Source: Candidatus Falkowbacteria bacterium RIFOXYC2_FULL_36_12 (GTDB lineage Bacteria > Patescibacteriota > Patescibacteriia > UBA11705). Taken from it: a stretch of DNA of 64,000 bases. The stretch covers positions 193,476-257,475 of the forward strand of contig MFGJ01000007.1 of the NCBI GenBank assembly GCA_001778235.1. The letters are read 5' to 3'. The notes beneath the pieces were generated by a model. It searched no databases. It worked only from the letters and a program-made list of their open reading frames with translations, and had not been told where the DNA came from. Made by a program: the position numbers and the translations under genes. Positions 5,931 through 49,936 of the stretch are shown here, in pieces. Within the stretch, counting starts at the first letter, position 1. Every line of letters starts with the position of its first letter.

Positions 5931-8030
5931 ATGCCGAAAAAAGAAGTTAACAAAAAACCAAAAACTGATAAAAAAAACTCCCAAGCTTATGGTGCTGAAC
6001 AGATTACTGTACTTGAAGGACTAGATCCTGTCAGAAAAAGACCTGGAATGTATATTGGGAATACAGCTGGTGAAGGTTTGCATCATTTGATTTGGGAAGT
6101 GGTAAATAATTCAATTGATGAAGCCATGGCTGGCTACTGTACAGAAGTTGTGGTCAAAATTCTACCGGATAATGAGGTTGAAGTGATTGATAATGGTCGA
6201 GGTATTCCAGTTGAAATCCACAAAGCAACAAAAGTCTCTGCCCTAGAAACCGTAATGACAAAACTCCATGCTGGCGGAAAATTTGGTCAAGGTGGATACA
6301 AAGTTTCTGGTGGATTGCATGGTGTTGGTGTTTCCGTTGTTAATGCCTTGTCTACACTGACAATCGCAAAAGTCAAAAGAGATGGAAATGTCTATGAACA
6401 AGAATATAAAATCGGTAAACCTCAAAAAAAGGTAAAAGTTATTGGAAAAGTAACTATACCAAAAAAACTGGACCCTTTTTTTCCGGAAGAACTGTATAAG
6501 ATGGGAACTTCAATAAAATTTAAACCTGACAGTACAATATTTACTGAAACTGTGTTTGATTGGGATAAAATTTTGAATTATTTGAGACAACAAGCATATC
6601 TGACAAAGGGTGTTAAATTACTTGCCTTTGATCTTCGGGACAAAGATAAACCAAAAGATTTTGCTTTCTTTTTTGAAGGAGGAATAAGTTCCTATGCCAA
6701 ACATCTAAATCACCAAGATAAGCCAATTCATGAAAATATATTTTATGTTGACAAGACCCTTGATGAGGTAAATGTTGAGATCGCTTTCCGTTATATTGAT
6801 GAATATCATGAAACAGTTGTAGCTTTTACCAACAATATTACCAATCCTGAAGGAGGTAGCCATGTAGCTGGATTTAGGACTGCCTTGACACGAACCTTGA
6901 ATTCATACGCTAGAAAACACAATATATTAAAAGAAAAAGATGAAAATCTATCTGGTGATGATGTCAGAGAAGGGTTAACTGCGGTTATAAGTGTAAAAGT
7001 TAAAGATCCGCAATTTGAAGGTCAGACCAAGGCAAAATTGGGAAATGCAGAAGTCAAACCAGCGGTTGATCAGGTGCTGTCAGAATCTTTGGATATATTT
7101 CTTGAAGAGCATCCAAAAGACGCTGAAGCTTTTATTGGGAAATCATTGCTCGCGGCCCAGGCCAGAAAAGCTTCTCGAGCGGCGCGCGAGACCGTTCTTC
7201 GAAAAGGTGTTTTGGAAAGTTTATCACTTCCTGGAAAATTGGCTGACTGTTCTTCAAAAAATCCTGATGAATGTGAACTTTATATTGTTGAGGGAGACTC
7301 TGCTGGTGGTTCAGCGAAACAAGGACGAAGCAGAAATTTTCAGGCAATACTTCCCCTTCGAGGAAAAATTATCAACATTGAAAAAGCCCGCATTGACAAG
7401 ATGTTAGCTAACAATGAAGTAAAATCATTAATAATTGCTCTTGGAACTAACTTTGGCGAGCAAATGGAAATTGGAAAACTACGATATGGCAAAGTCATCA
7501 TCATGACCGATGCTGATGTTGATGGAGCGCACATCCGAACATTGCTTTTGACTTTGTTTTTCCGACATTTTTATCCTTTAATACAAAATGGTAATCTCTA
7601 TATTGCCCAACCACCATTATTCCAAGTGAAAAAAGGCAAAAATATTGAATATGTTTATTCAGAAGAAGAGCTGGAAATAACTTTAGAGAAGTTCAAAAAA
7701 TTAAAAGATGAACCAAAAGCCAAGAAAGAGCAGGAAGAAACCGAGCAAGCTGATGAAGAAATAAAAGAAGCTGATATTGAACAAGTAGAAATCCAAGACC
7801 AAGCATTAAAAGGAGTGTCTATTCAACGATACAAAGGTTTGGGAGAGATGAATCCGACTCAACTGTGGGATACAACCATGAATCCAGAAACCAGGGTTTT
7901 GAAACAGGTGACGGTTGCTGATGTGGATAAGGCTGACGAGGTCTTTGATATTCTAATGGGGGCAGAAGTTGCACCAAGAAAAAGATTTATACAAACTCAT
8001 GCCAAGTCTGTGAAGAATTTGGATGTTTAG
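5931..8030 (+). CDS. gyrB: DNA gyrase / topoisomerase IV subunit B
   Basis: 699 aa carrying the GHKL ATPase motifs (HHLIWEVVNNSIDEAMAGY), the Toprim domain and the C-terminal EGDSAGGS motif. Confidence 0.9.
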   Translation: MPKKEVNKKPKTDKKNSQAYGAEQITVLEGLDPVRKRPGMYIGNTAGEGLHHLIWEVVNNSIDEAMAGYCTEVVVKILPDNEVEVIDNGRGIPVEIHKATKVSALETVMTKLHAGGKFGQGGYKVSGGLHGVGVSVVNALSTLTIAKVKRDGNVYEQEYKIGKPQKKVKVIGKVTIPKKLDPFFPEELYKMGTSIKFKPDSTIFTETVFDWDKILNYLRQQAYLTKGVKLLAFDLRDKDKPKDFAFFFEGGISSYAKHLNHQDKPIHENIFYVDKTLDEVNVEIAFRYIDEYHETVVAFTNNITNPEGGSHVAGFRTALTRTLNSYARKHNILKEKDENLSGDDVREGLTAVISVKVKDPQFEGQTKAKLGNAEVKPAVDQVLSESLDIFLEEHPKDAEAFIGKSLLAAQARKASRAARETVLRKGVLESLSLPGKLADCSSKNPDECELYIVEGDSAGGSAKQGRSRNFQAILPLRGKIINIEKARIDKMLANNEVKSLIIALGTNFGEQMEIGKLRYGKVIIMTDADVDGAHIRTLLLTLFFRHFYPLIQNGNLYIAQPPLFQVKKGKNIEYVYSEEELEITLEKFKKLKDEPKAKKEQEETEQADEEIKEADIEQVEIQDQALKGVSIQRYKGLGEMNPTQLWDTTMNPETRVLKQVTVADVDKADEVFDILMGAEVAPRKRFIQTHAKSVKNLDV

Positions 8031-8087
8031 CTGGGAGTAACTAGTAATTAGAAACTAGGGACTAGGGTTAATAAGAAAAAATATATA

Positions 8088-8120
8088 AAAAAACAGCTGA
8101 AGTTAGTCAGTTGTTTTTTT
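8088..8120. terminator. Bidirectional rho-independent terminator (A-run, hairpin ACAGCUGA/UCAGUUGU, T-run)
   Basis: The hairpin is flanked by A6 and T7. An identical 30-nt copy lies at 8399-8430. Confidence 0.7.
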
Positions 8121-8398
8121 GGATAGTAAGATTGATGTTGCTAAAGCAAGTTTTTTTCAGATAAAGTGATTGATTACGCTCTGCGTGGTACTTTTTGATG
8201 GCAAAAAGTACCCAAAAACCATTGGGGGCTTTAATTGCTACTTATAAAAAACATTTCGTGCTTTGAACACGGCAAAAAGCCCCCAAACCCGAGGCTCACC
8301 ATGTTTGTGGGGATGAATAATAAAATTAATGATTGGTTTTGCTAAAGCATGCCCCAGACCTAGAGTTATCAAGCTTCATTCTTTTTACTTATAAATAA
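8121..8398. ncRNA. Candidate structured non-coding RNA or element bounded by two identical terminators
   Basis: This 278 bp segment has no ORF. It contains stems such as GGGGGCUUU...AAAGCCCCC and GUACUUUUUGAUGGCAAAAAGUAC. Its strand and identity are unknown. Confidence 0.3.
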
Positions 8399-8430
8399 AA
8401 AAACAGCTGAAGTTAGTCAGTTGTTTAAAT
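8399..8430. terminator. Second copy of the bidirectional terminator, serving the minus-strand gene ending at 8425
   Basis: On the minus strand the hairpin is followed by a U-run. Confidence 0.7.
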
Positions 8431-8859
8431 TCTTGTAAATCGTTGCCACCAAGGATTGTCCAATGTGTCAGTGATGAAAATATAACAAACATTACATTCG
8501 GCATTTGGAGTTGTTTTTTCCGAGAATAAAGGACTGGTTTGATGTGGCATGTATGCAGTTAGAACTCTGAATTCAGGGTCATTTGGATTTGTCCCGCCTT
8601 CAATCAGAAAGCAAACCGTCTCAACAAATTGTTCAAAGTCAAATTCTTCCTTTTCCCGTTTCAGTGGCTCGAAAAAAGCAACAACTGCTTTGCGCATCTG
8701 TAAATCTGTTTCAGATCGTCTGCGTGAGTCAAAACCATAACCAAAACTTTCTTCGCCAACAAACACTGACATAGTCTGCGTGGTGATGTAATTTTCACCT
8801 TTTGGGATCCGCCCTGTTACACGACCAATAGCACCAAAAAACAAAACAATCTCTTTCAT
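8425..8859 (-). CDS. Island gene C: hypothetical 144-aa protein (start MKEIVLFF)
   Basis: A GGAGG Shine-Dalgarno sits 7 nt upstream of the ATG at 8859, and the gene has its own TTGACT-17-TAAGAT promoter. Its GC content is visibly higher than the flanks. No recognisable family. Confidence 0.5.
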   Translation of the reverse strand: MKEIVLFFGAIGRVTGRIPKGENYITTQTMSVFVGEESFGYGFDSRRRSETDLQMRKAVVAFFEPLKREKEEFDFEQFVETVCFLIEGGTNPNDPEFRVLTAYMPHQTSPLFSEKTTPNAECNVCYIFITDTLDNPWWQRFTRI

Positions 8860-8980
8860 GCTGGCCTCCGTGGGGTGCTGGGGATGTAAGCATGTTACAA
8901 AAAAAGATTGAAGATTGAAGATCAAAGATCTGTTGATTATACTGAATCTTACAATAATTAATAGCCAAAGTCAATAAAAA

Positions 8981-9001
8981 ATTTACGAAATTTTCGTAAA
9001 T
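8981..9001. promoter_or_regulatory. Perfect palindrome ATTTACGAAA-T-TTTCGTAAAT just upstream of the gene C promoter; candidate operator
   Basis: A 10+10 inverted repeat lies 7 nt beyond the -35 element (plus-strand 8969-8974). Confidence 0.5.
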
Positions 9002-9007
9002 TTATTT

Positions 9008-9769
9008 TTATTCATCACACCAAAGGCTACCGTCAATCGAGACGCTTTGTAACTTATCATCTAACTTTAGGCCGAATCGCAATCCAAGAACTTTAAGCCC
9101 AGCGATAAAAGCGACAACCATTGAAGAGTCACCAGTCATATGTAAGGATATAAGTCTTTCCATGATTTCAATAAAGACCAAAAGTTGCTTCAACCTATTT
9201 TTGGCCCAGATTTCCATTCCTGCCAACTGCACCTCAATTGCAACATTATTAATGCTGTTACGAGTCAAAAACAGGTTAAAAGTAATTCTGTGATCTTTAT
9301 CGTAGAACACATCAATCTGCGCTGATTTGTACTGCGAAGAGAGCACCTGCCACCAAGTTTTCTCCTTATTATCATAAACTGCAATACTGCATTCTGATTT
9401 TTCATCTAGATCAATATCCTCTTTGATTTCCGGACGAGGTCTGACAATTCCGCCATAAGTAGTGTAATTGTAACTGACATCATATTTACTGACTTCAATC
9501 ATCTTACATAGCACATCTCCGATGGCAGTTAATGTCCACTGCTTAATCCTGTGTCGCAGTTCGCGAATAAAGCTCCTCAAAAAGTTATCCAACTCCGTGC
9601 TCATGGAATCAGTGATCTCTTGAATTGTGATGCGTTTTGAGTCAAGATGGACATCAATGATTATTTTGTTTTTAAACTTGAAGCCACCTGGATCAAATGT
9701 TCCTGGTACATGATTATCTTCAAACCCATAATCAATGATAAATGTCTTGTGTTTACAATCGAGATTCAT
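9008..9769 (-). CDS. Island gene B: hypothetical 253-aa protein (start MNLDCKHK)
   Basis: An AGGAGAA Shine-Dalgarno precedes the ATG at 9769. It contains GG-x11-DIDLD (YGGIVRPRPEIKEDIDLD), reminiscent of the minimal nucleotidyltransferase G[SG]...DxD motif. Confidence 0.5.
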   Translation of the reverse strand: MNLDCKHKTFIIDYGFEDNHVPGTFDPGGFKFKNKIIIDVHLDSKRITIQEITDSMSTELDNFLRSFIRELRHRIKQWTLTAIGDVLCKMIEVSKYDVSYNYTTYGGIVRPRPEIKEDIDLDEKSECSIAVYDNKEKTWWQVLSSQYKSAQIDVFYDKDHRITFNLFLTRNSINNVAIEVQLAGMEIWAKNRLKQLLVFIEIMERLISLHMTGDSSMVVAFIAGLKVLGLRFGLKLDDKLQSVSIDGSLWCDE

Positions 9770-9798
9770 GCTGGTTCTCCTGTCTGGGTGGTCAACTG

Positions 9799-10131
9799 CT
9801 ATTTCCACCAATCAGCATTAAACTTAACTGCATAGATATTATCTACATCATACAATTCATATTCAGGTTGACGATATTGACTTCGAAGCAACATTCTAAA
9901 ATATTGCCAAATACTTTCTACTGTTAATTTTCCTCGATGCTGGTGGCAAAAAGTCTGCATGCCCTCGGCTAAAAACAATATTTTTTTCATCGGTTCAATT
10001 TGAAGTGGAACAAAAGTGGAAATATAGACCTTGAAGCCTTTTCTAACTGCAATATTTGCCATATTTTGAGTTGATTTCTGATTACTGATTTGGATTATAA
10101 TGATATAATCATTTTTCTGCAGGTCTGGCAT
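9799..10131 (-). CDS. Island gene A: hypothetical 110-aa protein (start MPDLQKNDYIIIIQ)
   Basis: An AGGAGGGAAG Shine-Dalgarno precedes the ATG at 10131. It is the first gene of the A-B operon and resembles a small Rossmann-like (DsrE-like?) module. Confidence 0.45.
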   Translation of the reverse strand: MPDLQKNDYIIIIQISNQKSTQNMANIAVRKGFKVYISTFVPLQIEPMKKILFLAEGMQTFCHQHRGKLTVESIWQYFRMLLRSQYRQPEYELYDVDNIYAVKFNADWWK

Positions 10132-10220
10132 GACTTCCCTCCTGGTTATTGTCAAAGAATATAAAAGATTATCATTTTACACAAAAAGTGTCAATGTTTA
10201 TAATTTTCAATAAATCTCTT

Positions 10221-12790: not shown

Positions 12791-13135
12791 TTATTCAGCT
12801 TGTTTTTGTGATTCGAAATCAACAACCAGATTGGCACTCATAAATTTTGTGGAAAGTTCTATCTTGGCTCGCCAGCAATCCTCAATCCTGGCCCACTCAT
12901 CATCGGTAATTTTTAACCCCTTCACGAAATTCCAATTACACCTTCTATGATCATTCACCGCCCTTTCTTCAATATCTACTATCTGAAAATTATCATCTTC
13001 GCCAACTCTGAAAATCTCAACAACTAAATCAATATCAGTCTCCTGACTCGGGATATTCACTTTTTTTGACTTAACCGGTGAAAAGACTAAATAAATGGTA
13101 CCAGGAATGCGAGTTAACAAAAATGCTTGCTTCAT
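12791..13135 (-). CDS. Hypothetical protein (114 aa)
   Basis: ORF only; no family recognised. Confidence 0.35.
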   Translation of the reverse strand: MKQAFLLTRIPGTIYLVFSPVKSKKVNIPSQETDIDLVVEIFRVGEDDNFQIVDIEERAVNDHRRCNWNFVKGLKITDDEWARIEDCWRAKIELSTKFMSANLVVDFESQKQAE

Positions 13136-26472: not shown

Positions 26473-27111
26473 TTATTCCAAAGTGACTTTCGGTAGTGAT
26501 TCAAGCACATAACCAAACAAGTTCAAATGTGCATTAAGATTGGTTTCAATATATACTTGCAATGATCTCAAAGGAATTGCCTCTGCACCAGTGCAAGCGA
26601 CTGAATTGAAATTACTTTGCACTGAACTTTCAGCTCGGCTAACTGCGGTGTAAAACAATTTCTGCAAAATCCATTCCGACTGTTTTACTGTTTGTGGTTT
26701 GTCTAGATTGGTCCAATTGAACTGTTCAGCCAGCAAACGAAGATGTTCATTGCTAACAACTGCAGTTGCCTGAAAACGCAGGATACAGTTATTCAAGGTT
26801 ACATAGTTATCAATGCTATATTCTACGGGGATGTTAATACATTGGTTGAAACAAAAAGTGCTTCCTCGACTAACCTGACCAAATTCATTAATGGTAAGGA
26901 CATCACTTTTATATTTATCACCGAATTCCAGATACAGGGAGCTAAACAAAATTGCACAAGTAGTGAGCAAAGAAACAAGTCTGAAAAGATATCGGAACTT
27001 GTAAAAATAATTTTCTGGATTTTTCCAAGTTACAATAAACATTACCCAGGAGGCCATACAAAGAACAAAAACAATGATTATCATATAACCAATCAACCCT
27101 GCTAAAGACAT
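26473..27111 (-). CDS. Hypothetical membrane-anchored Cys-containing protein, tandem paralogue 1
   Basis: Two N-terminal TM helices and a conserved STFC..CINxP motif. It has a 3' terminator hairpin TAAACGAT-n6-ATCGTTTA plus a T-run. Confidence 0.5.
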   Translation of the reverse strand: MSLAGLIGYMIIIVFVLCMASWVMFIVTWKNPENYFYKFRYLFRLVSLLTTCAILFSSLYLEFGDKYKSDVLTINEFGQVSRGSTFCFNQCINIPVEYSIDNYVTLNNCILRFQATAVVSNEHLRLLAEQFNWTNLDKPQTVKQSEWILQKLFYTAVSRAESSVQSNFNSVACTGAEAIPLRSLQVYIETNLNAHLNLFGYVLESLPKVTLE

Positions 27112-27227: not shown

Positions 27228-27890
27228 CTACTCCCAACTAATTTGAGGGAGAGACGAAAGTTCATAGCCAAACAAATTCAGACGAGCATTAAGATAATGT
27301 TGGACTAAAATAGGAATAGAATACAGCTCTAATTGTTCACAGCCAGTTTGAGTAAAGAGACTCTGCAACATCAATTCAGTATCATTAACGGAGAGATAGA
27401 ACTTGCCACGAAGAATGGTATAAGATTCTTCTACTGATTGAGGACTTGAACGATTGGTCAGCTGAAATTGCTCGGCGAGTTGCCTGATATTAGCTTCACT
27501 GACTTGGGCTGAAGCTGTGATTCTCAAGACACACCCATTCAGAGGAACATAATTGTCAAACTTATAAATCGTTGGGAGATTGATACAATCATTGTGACAA
27601 AATGTAGATCCAGTCCCTAATACAAGGTGTCCTGATGAATCTTGCTTCAAAACTGATGGGCCAAACTCAATGTACAGTGATGAAGTGAAAAGTGCCCCAC
27701 AAAAGACAAGGCAGATGATACGAAATAGATGTCTGTAGGGGGAAAGCTTATTTTTACGGGAAAGTGGTGAAACACCATCCAGATTATTTAGCTTCGTAGC
27801 TGACCAAGAAGTCACAACAATAAAACATGAAATTACCGCCAACATTGAAATAATGTACATATATACGCTAGGGATGATTGTCGTGTCCAT
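27228..27890 (-). CDS. Hypothetical membrane-anchored Cys-containing protein, tandem paralogue 2
   Basis: A paralogue of the gene at 26473..27111 with the same terminator hairpin copy at 27204-27230. Confidence 0.5.
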   Translation of the reverse strand: MDTTIIPSVYMYIISMLAVISCFIVVTSWSATKLNNLDGVSPLSRKNKLSPYRHLFRIICLVFCGALFTSSLYIEFGPSVLKQDSSGHLVLGTGSTFCHNDCINLPTIYKFDNYVPLNGCVLRITASAQVSEANIRQLAEQFQLTNRSSPQSVEESYTILRGKFYLSVNDTELMLQSLFTQTGCEQLELYSIPILVQHYLNARLNLFGYELSSLPQISWE

Positions 27891-35042: not shown

Positions 35043-35423
35043 ATGAAAGATAAAGTTTTATATAAGGATTTAAGCTATATAGTAGGTGGCATTTTGTTCC
35101 AAGTATATAATTATCATGGTTTCGGACTTAGAGAAAAAATATATTGCCAATATATAAATAAGCTTTTAAGAGAGAATAAAATTAACTTTCAAGAACAATT
35201 TACAATTCCAGTAAAATACTATAATAGACATGAAGTAAAAAGATACGCTGATTTTCTGATTGATGATCAAATTATTTTAGAGTTAAAAACGGGAAAAAGA
35301 TTGTTTGGTAAAGATTTTGATCAAACTTTTGAATACTTAAAATTAACAAATAAAAAACTGGGGCTACTCGTGTTATTCTCACCAGAAAAAGTAATAATCC
35401 ATAGAGTCCTAAATAACCAGTAA
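35043..35423 (+). CDS. GxxExxY-family protein (PD-(D/E)XK nuclease-like), copy 1, inserted between murD and ftsW
   Basis: The motifs GxxExxY (GLREKIY), DFLIDD and ELK match the family. Confidence 0.7.
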   Translation: MKDKVLYKDLSYIVGGILFQVYNYHGFGLREKIYCQYINKLLRENKINFQEQFTIPVKYYNRHEVKRYADFLIDDQIILELKTGKRLFGKDFDQTFEYLKLTNKKLGLLVLFSPEKVIIHRVLNNQ

Positions 35424-39662: not shown

Positions 39663-40046
39663 TTAGATATTGTTTAGAATTCTATAAATATCTGCTTTTT
39701 CTGACCCAAAAAGAACCAGCAATCCCAATTTATACCCAGACAACTTCAAATATTCAGTTACCTGATCAAAATCTTTTTGGTATAATCTTTTACCTACTTT
39801 CACTTCTATAACGATTTTATCATCAATAATAAAGTCAAAATATCTGTTGCTTAATTTTTCACTATATAATGTTAAAGGAACTTTATATTGTTCTTCAAAT
39901 GAAATATTGTTTTGTTTTAATAGCTTCCCCAAACTTTGGCAATAAGTTTTTTCTCTGTATCCAGGACCATGATATTTAAAAACTTGAAAAACAATCCCAT
40001 TCAAAACATAACTTAGATCTTTATATATTAGCTTATCTACGCTCAT
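39663..40046 (-). CDS. GxxExxY-family protein (PD-(D/E)XK nuclease-like), copy 2 (start MSVDKLIYKDLSY)
   Basis: A paralogue of the gene at 35043..35423 (GYREKTY, DFIIDD, EVK). The ORF-track start at 40097 is an over-extension into the repeat. Confidence 0.65.
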   Translation of the reverse strand: MSVDKLIYKDLSYVLNGIVFQVFKYHGPGYREKTYCQSLGKLLKQNNISFEEQYKVPLTLYSEKLSNRYFDFIIDDKIVIEVKVGKRLYQKDFDQVTEYLKLSGYKLGLLVLFGSEKADIYRILNNI

Positions 40047-40088
40047 ATTTTCGTAATCTTTTGTAGTCTTTTGTAGTTTTGTAATCAC
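40047..40088. repeat. R3 repeat arm directly abutting the start of GxxExxY copy 2
   Basis: ATTTTCGTAATCTTTTGTAGTCTTTTGTAGTTTTGTAATCAC. Confidence 0.65.
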
Positions 40089-40155
40089 AATACCCAACTA
40101 AAAAAGTAGGTATTTATATAATACCTACTTTTTAATAAATCGTCAAGTATTAATC

Positions 40156-47569: not shown

Positions 47570-48106
47570 TTATTCTAAACTATCTCCAAACTGGGCTTCA
47601 ACTTTGCGGATTTTTGGTGCGATATTGAGAATACAGTATGGTTTAGTAGTATTGTTTTTGTAATAATTCTGATGATAATCTTCAGCTGGATAAAACTTTA
47701 TCAACCGCCTAACTTCAGTAACAATTTTTATTTCATCTTTTAGTTGTTTTGCCTCAATAAAATTTTCAGCTTGTTGTCTCTGATCATCTTCAGTCCAGAA
47801 AATTATTGAGTGATATTGGGGACCGGCATCGTGGCCTTGTTTGTCCATGGAAGTTGGGTCATGCATAGCAAAAAAGATTTCAAACAAATCTTTCAACTCT
47901 AAAATTTCTGGATTGTATTCAATTTTCACAACTTCAATATGACCGGTTTGGCCGGAGCTGACTTGCTGATAAGTCGGATTATCAATTTCACCGCCAGCAT
48001 AGCCAGGAGCAACAGACTCAACACCTTTTATCATTTGAAAAACTGCTTCAGTGCACCAGAAGCAACCTCCGCCAAGTATAATTGTTTTATTTTTCATAGG
48101 GTACAA
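47570..48106 (-). CDS. msrA: Peptide methionine sulfoxide reductase MsrA
   Basis: The GGGCFWC active site. Confidence 0.9.
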   Translation of the reverse strand: MYPMKNKTIILGGGCFWCTEAVFQMIKGVESVAPGYAGGEIDNPTYQQVSSGQTGHIEVVKIEYNPEILELKDLFEIFFAMHDPTSMDKQGHDAGPQYHSIIFWTEDDQRQQAENFIEAKQLKDEIKIVTEVRRLIKFYPAEDYHQNYYKNNTTKPYCILNIAPKIRKVEAQFGDSLE

Positions 48107-48452
48107 ATTTTATGGATAAGGAATTGACGCAATGACGAGTATTTTTTTCAGTGTAATGTTCATTTGTAAAAACATGCCCAAGATGAGCACCACAGTTAGC
48201 GCATTGAATTTCTGTTCTTTGTCCATCTGGGTCAGGCAGATGTTTGACTGCTCCCAAGATTTCCGCATCAAAGCTAGGCCAGCCACAATTGGTCTGGAAT
48301 TTGTGTTCGGATTTATATAGTTCAGCATTGCAACGACGACAGATGTATTTGCCTGTTTGGAAATGTTGATAATATTCACCAGAAAAAGCTGGTTCAGTGG
48401 CTTTGTTTTCTATAATGTTGGCTTCTTCGGGGGTGAGAGGGTTGTATTTCAT
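48087..48452 (-). CDS. msrB: Peptide methionine sulfoxide reductase MsrB
   Basis: Zn-binding CxxC pairs and the RCNAELY...GWPSF...HLGHVF motifs. It overlaps msrA by 20 nt. Confidence 0.9.
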   Translation of the reverse strand: MKYNPLTPEEANIIENKATEPAFSGEYYQHFQTGKYICRRCNAELYKSEHKFQTNCGWPSFDAEILGAVKHLPDPDGQRTEIQCANCGAHLGHVFTNEHYTEKNTRHCVNSLSIKFVPYEK

Positions 48453-48609
48453 ATAGTTAAATCATTATATATAATTGTAGCATGATTTAATAAAAACATT
48501 ATCTTTTCCCTAGTTCTAGCCAGTCATGTTGACAAATATCCTGATACATGATATCATATAGGTAGATAGAAGGTGCCAATCTCCCAACAGAACTCGAAAG
48601 GAGTTCCTC

Positions 48610-49281
48610 ATGGACATCAAGAAGCGCTTCGTTCTTTTCATCATGGTCTTCGCTGTCATGTCGCTGGCGGTCGCCTGCGACACGCCCAGCGGAGATCAGA
48701 ACAACGACACGGTCGCGGGCGCCGACAACGGCACCGTGCCCCCTGACACGGGCAAGACCGACAGCGGTCAGCCCGTGGATTCCAGCCCGCCCGATGACTC
48801 GGGTGGGGAGCTGTGCTCGGGAGAAGAGGAGCTCTACAGCTACGAGATCTGGGATGACCACGCTGGAGACAGGGGTCTCGGAGGGTTCGTCATGCTCGAC
48901 TACTGCGTCTCGCAGGAGCTGTACGAGCTCCTGACCGTGACGCTACCCGGAATCTGGGTTCAGACCGATCCCCCGCTCGACAGAATGGGTCGCGAGTGGG
49001 AGCCGTTCGAGCTCACGGTGAAGCCAGTCGAAGCTGACTTCGAACTGCGGGCCCAGGCTACCTGCCCGAACGCGGACTTCTACCTCGAAGGAGGTGATTT
49101 CAGTCTGTGTATTGAGGATGATATGAGCCTCAACCTCTGCACGGACAGGCAGGCTTGCCAAGGTGTTTTCAACGGCTATGTCGAAGCCGATACAGTACAG
49201 TTTTTCAAGTCAACTGAAATCTCTCTGACTTATGAATTTTGTACAAGTACATGTAACACTCGTTCATACAAGAAGCTGTAA
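48610..49281 (+). CDS. High-GC foreign lipoprotein (acidic, 8 Cys), hypothetical
   Basis: The signal and lipobox (LAVAC) are read directly. GC content jumps sharply at about 48595 and falls at about 49240. It has its own TTGACA-17-TATCAT promoter and an AAAGGAG Shine-Dalgarno, and a terminator at 49289-49325. Confidence 0.6.
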   Translation: MDIKKRFVLFIMVFAVMSLAVACDTPSGDQNNDTVAGADNGTVPPDTGKTDSGQPVDSSPPDDSGGELCSGEEELYSYEIWDDHAGDRGLGGFVMLDYCVSQELYELLTVTLPGIWVQTDPPLDRMGREWEPFELTVKPVEADFELRAQATCPNADFYLEGGDFSLCIEDDMSLNLCTDRQACQGVFNGYVEADTVQFFKSTEISLTYEFCTSTCNTRSYKKL

Positions 49282-49288
49282 ATATTAA

Positions 49289-49325
49289 AGTGTAATACTA
49301 AATTGTGTTATACTTTTTTTGTTTT
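49289..49325 (+). terminator. Intrinsic terminator (GUGUAAUAC/GUGUUAUAC stem with G-U pairs plus U-run)
   Basis: Read directly from the sequence. Confidence 0.5.
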
Positions 49326-49498
49326 GAAGATATATTACTTGTTTTGCCTGTTGGCTGTGCGAACAAGCGGACGAGGCGAACTAATCGTCCAGTGAATTGC
49401 TCCACAATTCTGGTATGCCGATAGCTAAATCATTAATTAAACTATTATACAACAAAAGCTGAATTTACAACTTTTGTTTTTTTATCTATAATTAAACT

Positions 49499-49936
49499 AT
49501 GCGAAATTTATTATCAAACGAATCAGATTCAAAAAAACTGCAAAGAGCATGGGACTTAGATCAGAAGGCTTTGTTTTTGGCAGACAAAGATATCCAAAAA
49601 AAACTTTGGTCAGAAGCTATAAATATCTGCAAAAAATTACTAAAAAAATATGGGAACAATTTTCCAGATAATTTACAAATAATATACAAAATATTTTTAA
49701 TTTATCTACATCAGAAAAAAATTTTACTCGCAAAAAGATATATTGATAAAGCCTGGAATTTAGATAAAAATAATCCCATAACACTATTTAACTACGGCAA
49801 TTTTTATAGGGCGATAAATAAACCCAAATTGGCAATAAAATATTACGAATCAGCATCAAAGAAAAGTAGTACTAAAATCTTTGGAGAAGAATTAAAAAAA
49901 TATCTAACTTTTATAAATAAAAACAAAAAAGGATAA
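49499..49936 (+). CDS. TPR-repeat protein, apparently leaderless (TTTACA-16-TATAAT ends 6 nt before the ATG)
   Basis: TPR-like helical repeats (AWNLDKNNPITLFNYGNFYRAINKPKLAIKYYE). Confidence 0.5.
   Translation: MRNLLSNESDSKKLQRAWDLDQKALFLADKDIQKKLWSEAINICKKLLKKYGNNFPDNLQIIYKIFLIYLHQKKILLAKRYIDKAWNLDKNNPITLFNYGNFYRAINKPKLAIKYYESASKKSSTKIFGEELKKYLTFINKNKKG

Follow-up and report, generated by a model that had tools for sequence, protein, structure and literature searches.

A probable native accessory cluster with a paralogous gene pair at its core between gyrB and secE in a Falkowbacteria lineage

The described systems that come closest to the locus presented here are the minimal nucleotidyltransferases (NTases) of the Pol-beta superfamily (MNT, AbiEii and CD-NTases), type II toxin-antitoxin operons, the immunity arrays of polymorphic-toxin loci and RNase H-like proteins of RuvX/RuvC size. 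Zhang, Aravind et al. are said to have described, in 2012, paralogous immunity proteins encoded in tandem within polymorphic-toxin loci. For the Patescibacteria as a whole, 54,343 lineage-specific clusters of unknown function have been catalogued (PMC9132574). The window analyzed here, a stretch of 64,000 nucleotides on contig MFGJ01000007.1, is a genome fragment of a groundwater Falkowbacteria species (Patescibacteria, or Candidate Phyla Radiation, CPR) with 36% GC, taken from a metagenome-assembled genome (MAG) of the Rifle aquifer (Candidatus Falkowbacteria bacterium RIFOXYC2_FULL_36_12). It contains three minus-strand genes, A, B and C, between gyrB (5931-8030, plus strand) and secE-nusG-rplK-rplA (plus strand, from 10390). 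An initial annotation had read them as a candidate defence or addiction module, inserted here and including an NTase-like protein. In our analysis the cluster appears to be neither a recently inserted island nor a nucleotidyltransferase system. Its conserved core consists of adjacent paralogous genes for α/β proteins of ~145 aa, namely the N-terminal domain of B and the whole of C. We favor, with a probability of about 60%, an old, vertically inherited, fast-evolving native accessory cluster of one Falkowbacteria lineage, the core of which is probably a B/C heteromer.

The genes and the parts of B referred to below are located as follows (ORF, open reading frame; SD, Shine-Dalgarno sequence):

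9799-10131, minus strand: gene A, ORF of 110 aa with an AGGAGG SD; species-specific ORFan
9008-9769, minus strand: gene B, 253 aa from its ATG
9332-9769, minus strand: N-terminal domain of B, residues 1-146; member of the B/C family
9404-9454, minus strand: GG-x10-DIDLD segment of B, residues 106-122; the NTase motif of the initial annotation
9008-9331, minus strand: C-terminal extension of B, ~107 aa, present in this species only; includes SMVVAFIAGLKVLGLRFGL
8425-8859, minus strand: gene C, 144 aa; member of the B/C family

All three ORFs are present with the lengths first reported, and their SD strings were reproduced exactly: AGGAGGGAAG at 10134-10143 for A, AGGAGAA at 9775-9781 for B and GGAGG at 8865-8869 for C. 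Because the ORFs are long and have strong SDs in a genome of 36% GC, and because motifs are conserved across three species, we regard A, B and C as real genes.

The relation between B and C was established by profile comparison. An alignment of the B family with the C family (hhalign) reached 95-96% probability (E 2.5e-8 to 2.5e-9) over 136 columns, that is, nearly the full length. Residues 7-145 of B align with the full length of C (96.2%, E 2.5e-9), and the hidden Markov models (HMMs) of the two families match each other's members at 1e-7 to 1e-8. As judged from these profiles, the N-terminal domain of B and C are old paralogues. We defined the B/C family by a domain of ~145 aa with a Gly after strand 1 and an I-x3-D-x5-WW motif, encoded in the gyrB-secE gap and antisense to both flanking genes. 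Residues 1-146 of B, the whole of C and two proteins each from loci L023 and L083 belong to it. Invariant in all six sequences are the Gly after strand 1 and the Ile, Asp and Trp-Trp of the motif, which lies near the C-terminus. Members of the C subfamily further share FGAxGxxxG near the N-terminus as well as PLFS, CxxC and DTLxxPWW near the C-terminus. The proteins are soluble and acidic, with ~145 aa and no N-terminal hydrophobic segment. The extension of B (~107 aa) is absent from both orthologues and shows no relation to other cluster proteins; its moderately hydrophobic stretch, SMVVAFIAGLKVLGLRFGL, reaches a 19-residue Kyte-Doolittle maximum of 1.74 at residue 216.

The start regions of B and C also share an identical 10-nt context, CCAGCATGAA, directly after the SDs (8857-8866 and 9767-9776, minus strand). 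It could be a trace of the B/C duplication or a product of chance.

The search for relatives of the cluster yielded two other species and no more. One is represented by L023 (Falkowbacteria UBA11705, GyrB 79.7% identical), the other by L083-L088 (GyrB 78.6% identical). In both L023 and L083 the genes lie in this slot as well, again antisense to gyrB and secE, and their order from the secE side is A-position gene, B-like gene, C-like gene. The B orthologues (L083:10001-10435 and L023:13257-13682) are 23-31% identical to B. The C orthologues (L023:12826-13257, 31%; L083:10428-10862, 32-33%) are 38-41% identical to each other. The B-like stop codon overlaps the C-like start in both sister species (4 and 8 nt). 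GyrB identity among the four nearest species is 76-84%, as opposed to 23-41% for orthologues of B, C and the D family described below. The occurrence of B and C at the same site in three species (GyrB 79-84% identical), with orthologues that have diverged to 23-41%, points to a long residence. On this evidence the pair has been in place since before the three species diverged to ~80% GyrB identity.

The neighbors of the pair turn over between species. The A-position genes of L023 (126 aa) and L083 (145 aa) have no detectable similarity to A or to each other. The sister clusters are larger (4.0 and 5.1 kb) and carry, next to gyrB, a D family with one copy in L023 (188 aa) and two in L083 (185 and 178 aa). 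They further contain a 588-aa protein (L083:10944-12707, plus strand), three further ORFans and, in L023, an SDR, the only one of these added genes with a Pfam family.

To place the cluster in its wider setting, we compared 80 gyrB loci from species-representative genomes by tblastn with the proteins of the window. The gyrB/secE-nusG-rplK-rplA junction is widespread in Patescibacteria, and the gap is mostly 55-300 bp (L031, 55; L027, 83; L024, 108; L016, 142; L006, 299 bp). In some lineages it widens to 1-6 kb and holds unrelated cargo, for example:

L003: MscL
L004: matrixin-like peptidase
L011: CDP-alcohol phosphatidyltransferase and a CarS-like protein
L020: OmpA-domain protein and an ABC ATPase

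Since the cargo is unrelated from lineage to lineage, the slot can be regarded as a permissive, recurrent landing site. The cluster occurs in three of the four nearest species and is absent from L003 (GyrB 76-80%) and from every more distant Patescibacteria genome examined. The initial annotation had proposed that the cluster interrupts a conserved junction. This holds relative to most Patescibacteria, but a recent insertion is not supported, given the two sister species at ~79% GyrB identity. The synteny comparison it had called for was likewise divided: most relatives lack the cluster, but both sister species have B and C at this site and in this order.

The rplA-thyA interval of the window holds another ORFan, of 114 aa (12791-13135, minus strand), which lacks a Pfam family and any relative in the fetched loci. 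In the L083 species this interval is occupied by an unrelated ORF of 159 aa. It seems to be a general pattern here that slots between operons hold lineage-specific ORFans.

Beyond these loci, searches were nearly empty. A, B and C matched no family in Pfam, NCBIfam, PHROGs or PADLOC, as the initial annotation had anticipated, and no PDB sequence in sequence and profile searches; the sole library matches were at noise level (DUF7254, E 0.07; PRK04257, E 0.07 (A)). The six B/C members likewise gave nothing above noise in Pfam and PHROGs (E ≤ 10), and no Pfam match to RuvX or RuvC. Among the 5.8 billion proteins covered by word-indexed searches, A, B and C matched only themselves. A full HMMER search of B against 1.84 billion representatives found, besides B, the 144-aa protein P0004 (E 2.4e-6, 32% identity over B residues 8-144). 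P0004 is L083:10001-10435, the B orthologue with 29-30% identity, and led to the L083-L088 species. A metagenome scan with the C-family alignment yielded one locus, identical to L083. No member was found in viral contigs scanned with the B- and C-family alignments, no relative on phages and plasmids by tblastn, and no member of the B, C and D families, searched with their HMMs, in other Patescibacteria loci or elsewhere in the window.

Further copies of the B/C domain were considered in A, in the C-terminal half of B (an internal duplication), and in the A-position proteins of L023 (126 aa) and L083 (145 aa). This idea, prompted by how the hydrophobic strands are arranged and by the WW ending, was dropped because hhalign gave less than 3% for all of them. 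Protein A itself ends in NADWWK, but is not counted as a member, since its hhalign relation to the B/C family is below 1%.

Small paralogues may also occur elsewhere in the window. By eye, the translations of two adjacent minus-strand ORFs, 26473-27111 and 27228-27890 (212 and 220 aa), give the impression of a tandem paralogous pair, with N-terminal hydrophobic segments and common strings such as TFC.N.CIN.P and LAEQF. Two further small paralogues of ~126-144 aa (35043-35423, plus strand; 39663-40097, minus strand) share KDLSY…G(I/L)xFQV…YHG.G.REK.YCQ and resemble the 'GxxExxY' protein family.

Based on these results we propose the following picture of the native cluster. B and C probably form a hetero-oligomer, since the two genes are paralogues in tandem, and since in each sister species their frames overlap (4 nt in one, 8 nt in the other), which suggests translational coupling. 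In the species of the window, B would then have gained its C-terminal extension with a hydrophobic, possibly membrane-associating helix. C would have gained a spacer of its own with a hairpin and a promoter-like site, by which it may be separately controllable. A binding or adaptor role is favored over an enzymatic one, for example the sequestering of a partner or ligand by an Asp/Trp-Trp surface, because the B and C families have so few invariant residues in common that no shared catalytic constellation is evident.

Several points weigh against this proposal. The family rests on three species and six sequences, so that the 'invariant' positions are weakly established. The heteromer, like a role in binding and not in catalysis, is what we infer from the sequences. 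C could be catalytic with B as its degenerate partner, since C has enzyme-like invariants (the Gly-rich FGAxGxxxG loop and CxxC). Finally, L003 lacks the cluster at a comparable GyrB distance, and from GyrB identities alone a gain in the sub-clade and a loss in L003 look the same.

As to what a native cluster might do, there is roughly an even chance that it serves a lineage-specific cellular function. Its stable position, native composition and absence from mobile elements would fit such an ordinary role, as would the lack of any defence or toxin signature. A conflict-related, immunity-like role is possible, though on the unlikely side, and would fit the turnover of neighbors and the speed of divergence. 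The 588-aa protein has sub-threshold Pfam matches only (DUF7086, E 0.007; PoNi_C, an immunity domain, E 0.089). Both matches are too weak to use, yet they are the sole hint of a conflict-system domain across the three clusters. The most far-reaching version, in which B and C are a new fold and family and form the heteromeric module of a conflict or host-interaction system not described before, in a CPR bacterium living as an episymbiont, appears unlikely. In one form of it, an immunity-like pair of binders would be accompanied by the A-position ORFans, the D family and the 588-aa protein as diversifying effectors or sensors.

The initial annotation had gone further and proposed a novel toxin-antitoxin or anti-phage module, with B as a minimal NTase, A as a small Rossmann-like partner and C under separate regulation. 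We consider this reading quite improbable. Its attraction is easily seen: the proteins are small, tightly packed, fast-evolving and of no known family, the gene content around the core differs between species, as is common for conflict loci, and B contains a G-G…D-I-D-L-D string. The string lies at residues 106-122, with a spacing of x10 and not x11 as first reported. It is not conserved, however. The aligned residues of the orthologues read LGLFW…EHGPDEYN and LGSVL…TAEPDDEHE, with one G and one D invariant. In place of the hG[GS] pattern, Y-G-G of B aligns with L-G-L and L-G-S, so that only the first G is kept, and the C paralogues have no G there. In place of [DE]h[DE]h, the orthologues have EHGPD and TAEPD opposite DIDLD, so that the last D alone is kept.

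The predicted structure points in the same direction. An AlphaFold2 model of B(1-150) from a three-row alignment had a predicted local distance difference test score (pLDDT) of 65.4 and a predicted TM-score of 0.62; a single-sequence AlphaFold model of full-length B was unusable (pLDDT 40). The elements of the usable model are β7-15, β34-41, β46-52, α58-74, α80-92, β98-104, β125-132 and α139-147. The motif falls in the loop 103-124 (pLDDT <50) and not on a strand, and the predicted order β-β-β-α-α-β-loop-β-α would not be that of the α/β/α NTase core, as far as a model of pLDDT 65 allows. A Foldseek search of the model against PDB and BFVD gave nothing better than E 0.05 and TM 0.3, and no NTase. 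Neither did B match an NTase family at E ≤ 10 in Pfam and PADLOC, nor any of the six B/C members an NTase, toxin-antitoxin or defence HMM. Within the limits of the model, then, DIDLD does not appear to fold as part of an NTase, and the assignment of B to the NTases was not borne out.

The other components of the proposed module were not recovered either. Searches of Pfam, NCBIfam and PDB gave no evidence for a Rossmann-like A. No DNA-binding antitoxin domain (helix-turn-helix, ribbon-helix-helix, AbrB or Phd) and no known toxin superfamily was detected in A, B and C with Pfam, NCBIfam and PADLOC. The mutual paralogy of B and C is unlike toxin/antitoxin pairs. PADLOC, a search that had been suggested along with the module, matched none of the three proteins, nor did PHROGs; the nine sister-cluster proteins gave only a sub-threshold PADLOC match to REase_II (E 0.0022, 14.6 bits). 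HMM libraries may, admittedly, miss an undescribed kind of defence system. On the other hand, relatives were found neither on phages or plasmids nor in viral contigs, the cluster is accompanied by no att-like repeat, tRNA or mobility gene, its composition is native, its position is stable in three species, and its neighbors are all housekeeping genes (gyrB, secE, nusG, rplK, rplA, thyA, ftsW).

That some of the ORFs, especially A or the extension of B, are not functional genes but young or decaying frames in a spacer of fast turnover is very unlikely in our view. Both lack a relative anywhere, sister species included. Gene A had only self-matches among 5.8 billion proteins and no family match, and the mutually unrelated A-position genes of the three species as well as the missing D-family gene, with non-coding DNA in its place, could be read in this way. 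However, the SD of A (AGGAGG) is close to perfect and its frame runs for 110 codons in AT-rich DNA, the extension of B keeps 107 codons open, and B and C are clearly constrained. The only polymorphisms seen in A are an in-frame deletion and a two-residue substitution. The deletion is seen in L002, a 6.6-kb metagenome contig of the same species that differs from the window only by these 9 bp (10029-10037), which removes G-F-K from protein A. In the other variant residues 3-4 change from DL to TI. The variants within the population are too few for a ratio of non-synonymous to synonymous substitution rates (dN/dS).

Another alternative concerns the fold of the B/C domain, which might be a highly diverged RNase H-like domain of RuvC/RuvX type, mostly catalytically dead, that acts on or binds nucleic acid. 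The modeled element order of B, β1-β2-β3-α-(α)-β4-loop-β5-α, resembles the RNase H-like core, as does the ending of strand 1 in the B subfamily, h-h-I-D/N/H-Y-G (IIDYG, YINYG or YIHYG). The top Foldseek matches, all non-significant, were dominated by RNase H-like proteins: integrase cores, the nucleotide-binding domain of Hsp70, the RuvC domain of Cas12, a terminase nuclease and resolvases. Nevertheless we hold this assignment to be highly improbable. Every Foldseek match is at noise level (E ≥ 0.05, TM ≤ 0.3, r.m.s.d. 8-19 Å). The acidic residue of strand 1 is not conserved, being D, N or H in B and F in C, and no Pfam match to RuvX or RuvC was obtained. A rough comparison by hhalign with RuvX and RuvC sequences gave less than 1%, a test of low power because the RuvX-RuvC control scored only 2%.

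The view of the cluster as a recently and horizontally acquired genomic island can draw on the junction being intact and short in most Patescibacteria and on MscL replacing the cluster in L003, one of the four nearest species, but is hardly credible in view of the shared site in three species, a GC content and codon usage within the distribution of the genome's genes, and the lack of an integrase, of direct repeats around the genes (the terminator pair described below, the one long direct repeat, flanks the non-coding spacer instead) and of a tRNA (the 64-kb window has none). The GC content is 0.330 for A, 0.382 for B and 0.395 for C, compared with 0.354±0.047 for the 53 other genes of the window, and 1-kb windows over the cluster range from 0.32 to 0.38 (whole window, 0.359±0.032). 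Synonymous codon usage lies within 1.4 standard deviations (sd), with codon log-likelihood z-scores of +1.1 (A), -1.3 (B) and -0.2 (C); the GC content of third codon positions is mildly high in B only (z 2.25). The composition check proposed with the island thus showed native DNA, B's third positions being the one deviation. The higher GC noted initially is real with respect to the AT-rich intergenic flanks (0.27-0.29), but not with respect to the other genes; it is just the contrast of coding with AT-rich intergenic DNA.

The compositionally foreign gene of the window lies elsewhere, at 48610-49281 (plus strand). This ORF of 223 aa has ~55-60% GC over its first ~500 nt, and 1-kb windows over 48001-49500 reach 0.48-0.49, about +4 sd. 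The protein is Cys-rich and lipoprotein-like, with an N-terminus, MDIKKRFVLFIMVFAVMSLAVAC, that resembles a signal peptide and lipobox. It has no Pfam or Rfam match.

The spacers and terminators around the preferred native cluster are arranged as follows:

8860-9007, minus strand: B-C spacer with AT-rich hairpin and promoter-like site, consensus matches only
8391-8426, no strand assigned: bidirectional terminator copy 2, overlaps the stop codon of C
8117-8390, no strand assigned: structured non-coding spacer between the terminator copies
8081-8116, no strand assigned: bidirectional terminator copy 1, 50 nt past the gyrB stop codon

The initial annotation had described A and B as translationally coupled. 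When B begins at its ATG, a start supported by the N-termini of the orthologues, which line up with it, the two genes are separated by a 29-nt spacer that holds the SD of B. They overlap solely with the upstream TTG start at 9811 (JGI call). Coupling of A and B is therefore not supported, and A is probably co-transcribed with B. A separate promoter for C, also part of that annotation, is plausible because the B-C spacer of 148 nt contains, besides an AT-rich hairpin with a T run behind it (8973-9009), a sequence that resembles a promoter, TTGACT-17-TAAGAT (8974-8946). This is a consensus-level match only, in a scan that found 16 such sites where 10.1±3.2 were expected.

The two 36-nt terminator copies are 97% identical, including an identical core of 30 nt, with a chance expectation of 0. 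The duplication was thus correctly recognized, but the copies do not bound the cluster as a pair: one ends C, the other gyrB, and between them lies the 275-nt structured non-coding spacer and not the genes. In addition to the terminators, this spacer has four to five more GC hairpins with T runs, and its fold z-scores are -6.0 (plus strand) and -3.1 (minus strand). It contains no ORF longer than 44 aa, is not repeated in the rest of the window, has no counterpart in the sister species and, like the cluster, matches no Rfam family. The sister species have their D-family gene at this position. A relic of that gene was sought in the 394-nt gyrB-C spacer and none was found. The spacer could be a small RNA, a stack of terminators or the scar of a lost gene.

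With these results an NTase-type defence island next to gyrB is removed as a false lead, and the case illustrates that a short acidic string in a single ORFan can mimic a catalytic motif. A new small paralogous family, confined to one Falkowbacteria lineage, has been defined, and the gyrB/secE junction is documented as a site where lineage-specific cargo has landed repeatedly in Patescibacteria. If the cluster were a conflict or host-interaction module, it would be among very few such systems described in CPR bacteria, although nothing in our results makes that role likelier here than for the lineage-specific unknown clusters catalogued by the tens of thousands in the phylum.

A comparison with the known systems named at the outset summarizes where the cluster stands. 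With the minimal NTases it shares only the G-G…D-x-D-x-D string in B; it differs in that the string is not conserved, no HMM match exists, the modeled topology and the loop position appear incompatible, and there is no HEPN or other partner. Like type II toxin-antitoxin operons, the genes are small, co-oriented and close, with strong SDs, and the B/C orthologues overlap by 4-8 nt. Unlike them, B and C are homologous to each other, no DNA-binding antitoxin fold or toxin family is present, and the cluster has a stable chromosomal position and was not seen on mobile elements. The immunity arrays of polymorphic-toxin loci have in common with it tandem, fast-diverging, small soluble paralogues, variable neighbors and a duplicated family, here D in L083, but no toxin, secretion-system or Rhs/CDI gene is nearby and no Pfam Imm or SUKH match was obtained. 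RNase H-like proteins of RuvX/RuvC size agree in length (~145 aa), in the β-β-β-α…β…β-α order and in the 'hhhDxG'-like ending of strand 1 of B, and differ by the missing significant structure or profile match and by acidic residues that are not conserved. The catalogued lineage-specific clusters (PMC9132574) offer the remaining comparison: A, B and C are likewise restricted to approximately a genus or family, are without Pfam annotation and appear as 'hypothetical protein' in Rifle Falkowbacteria MAGs. What sets this cluster apart from them is the paralogy of B(1-146) and C, the synteny in three species and the defined variable slot.

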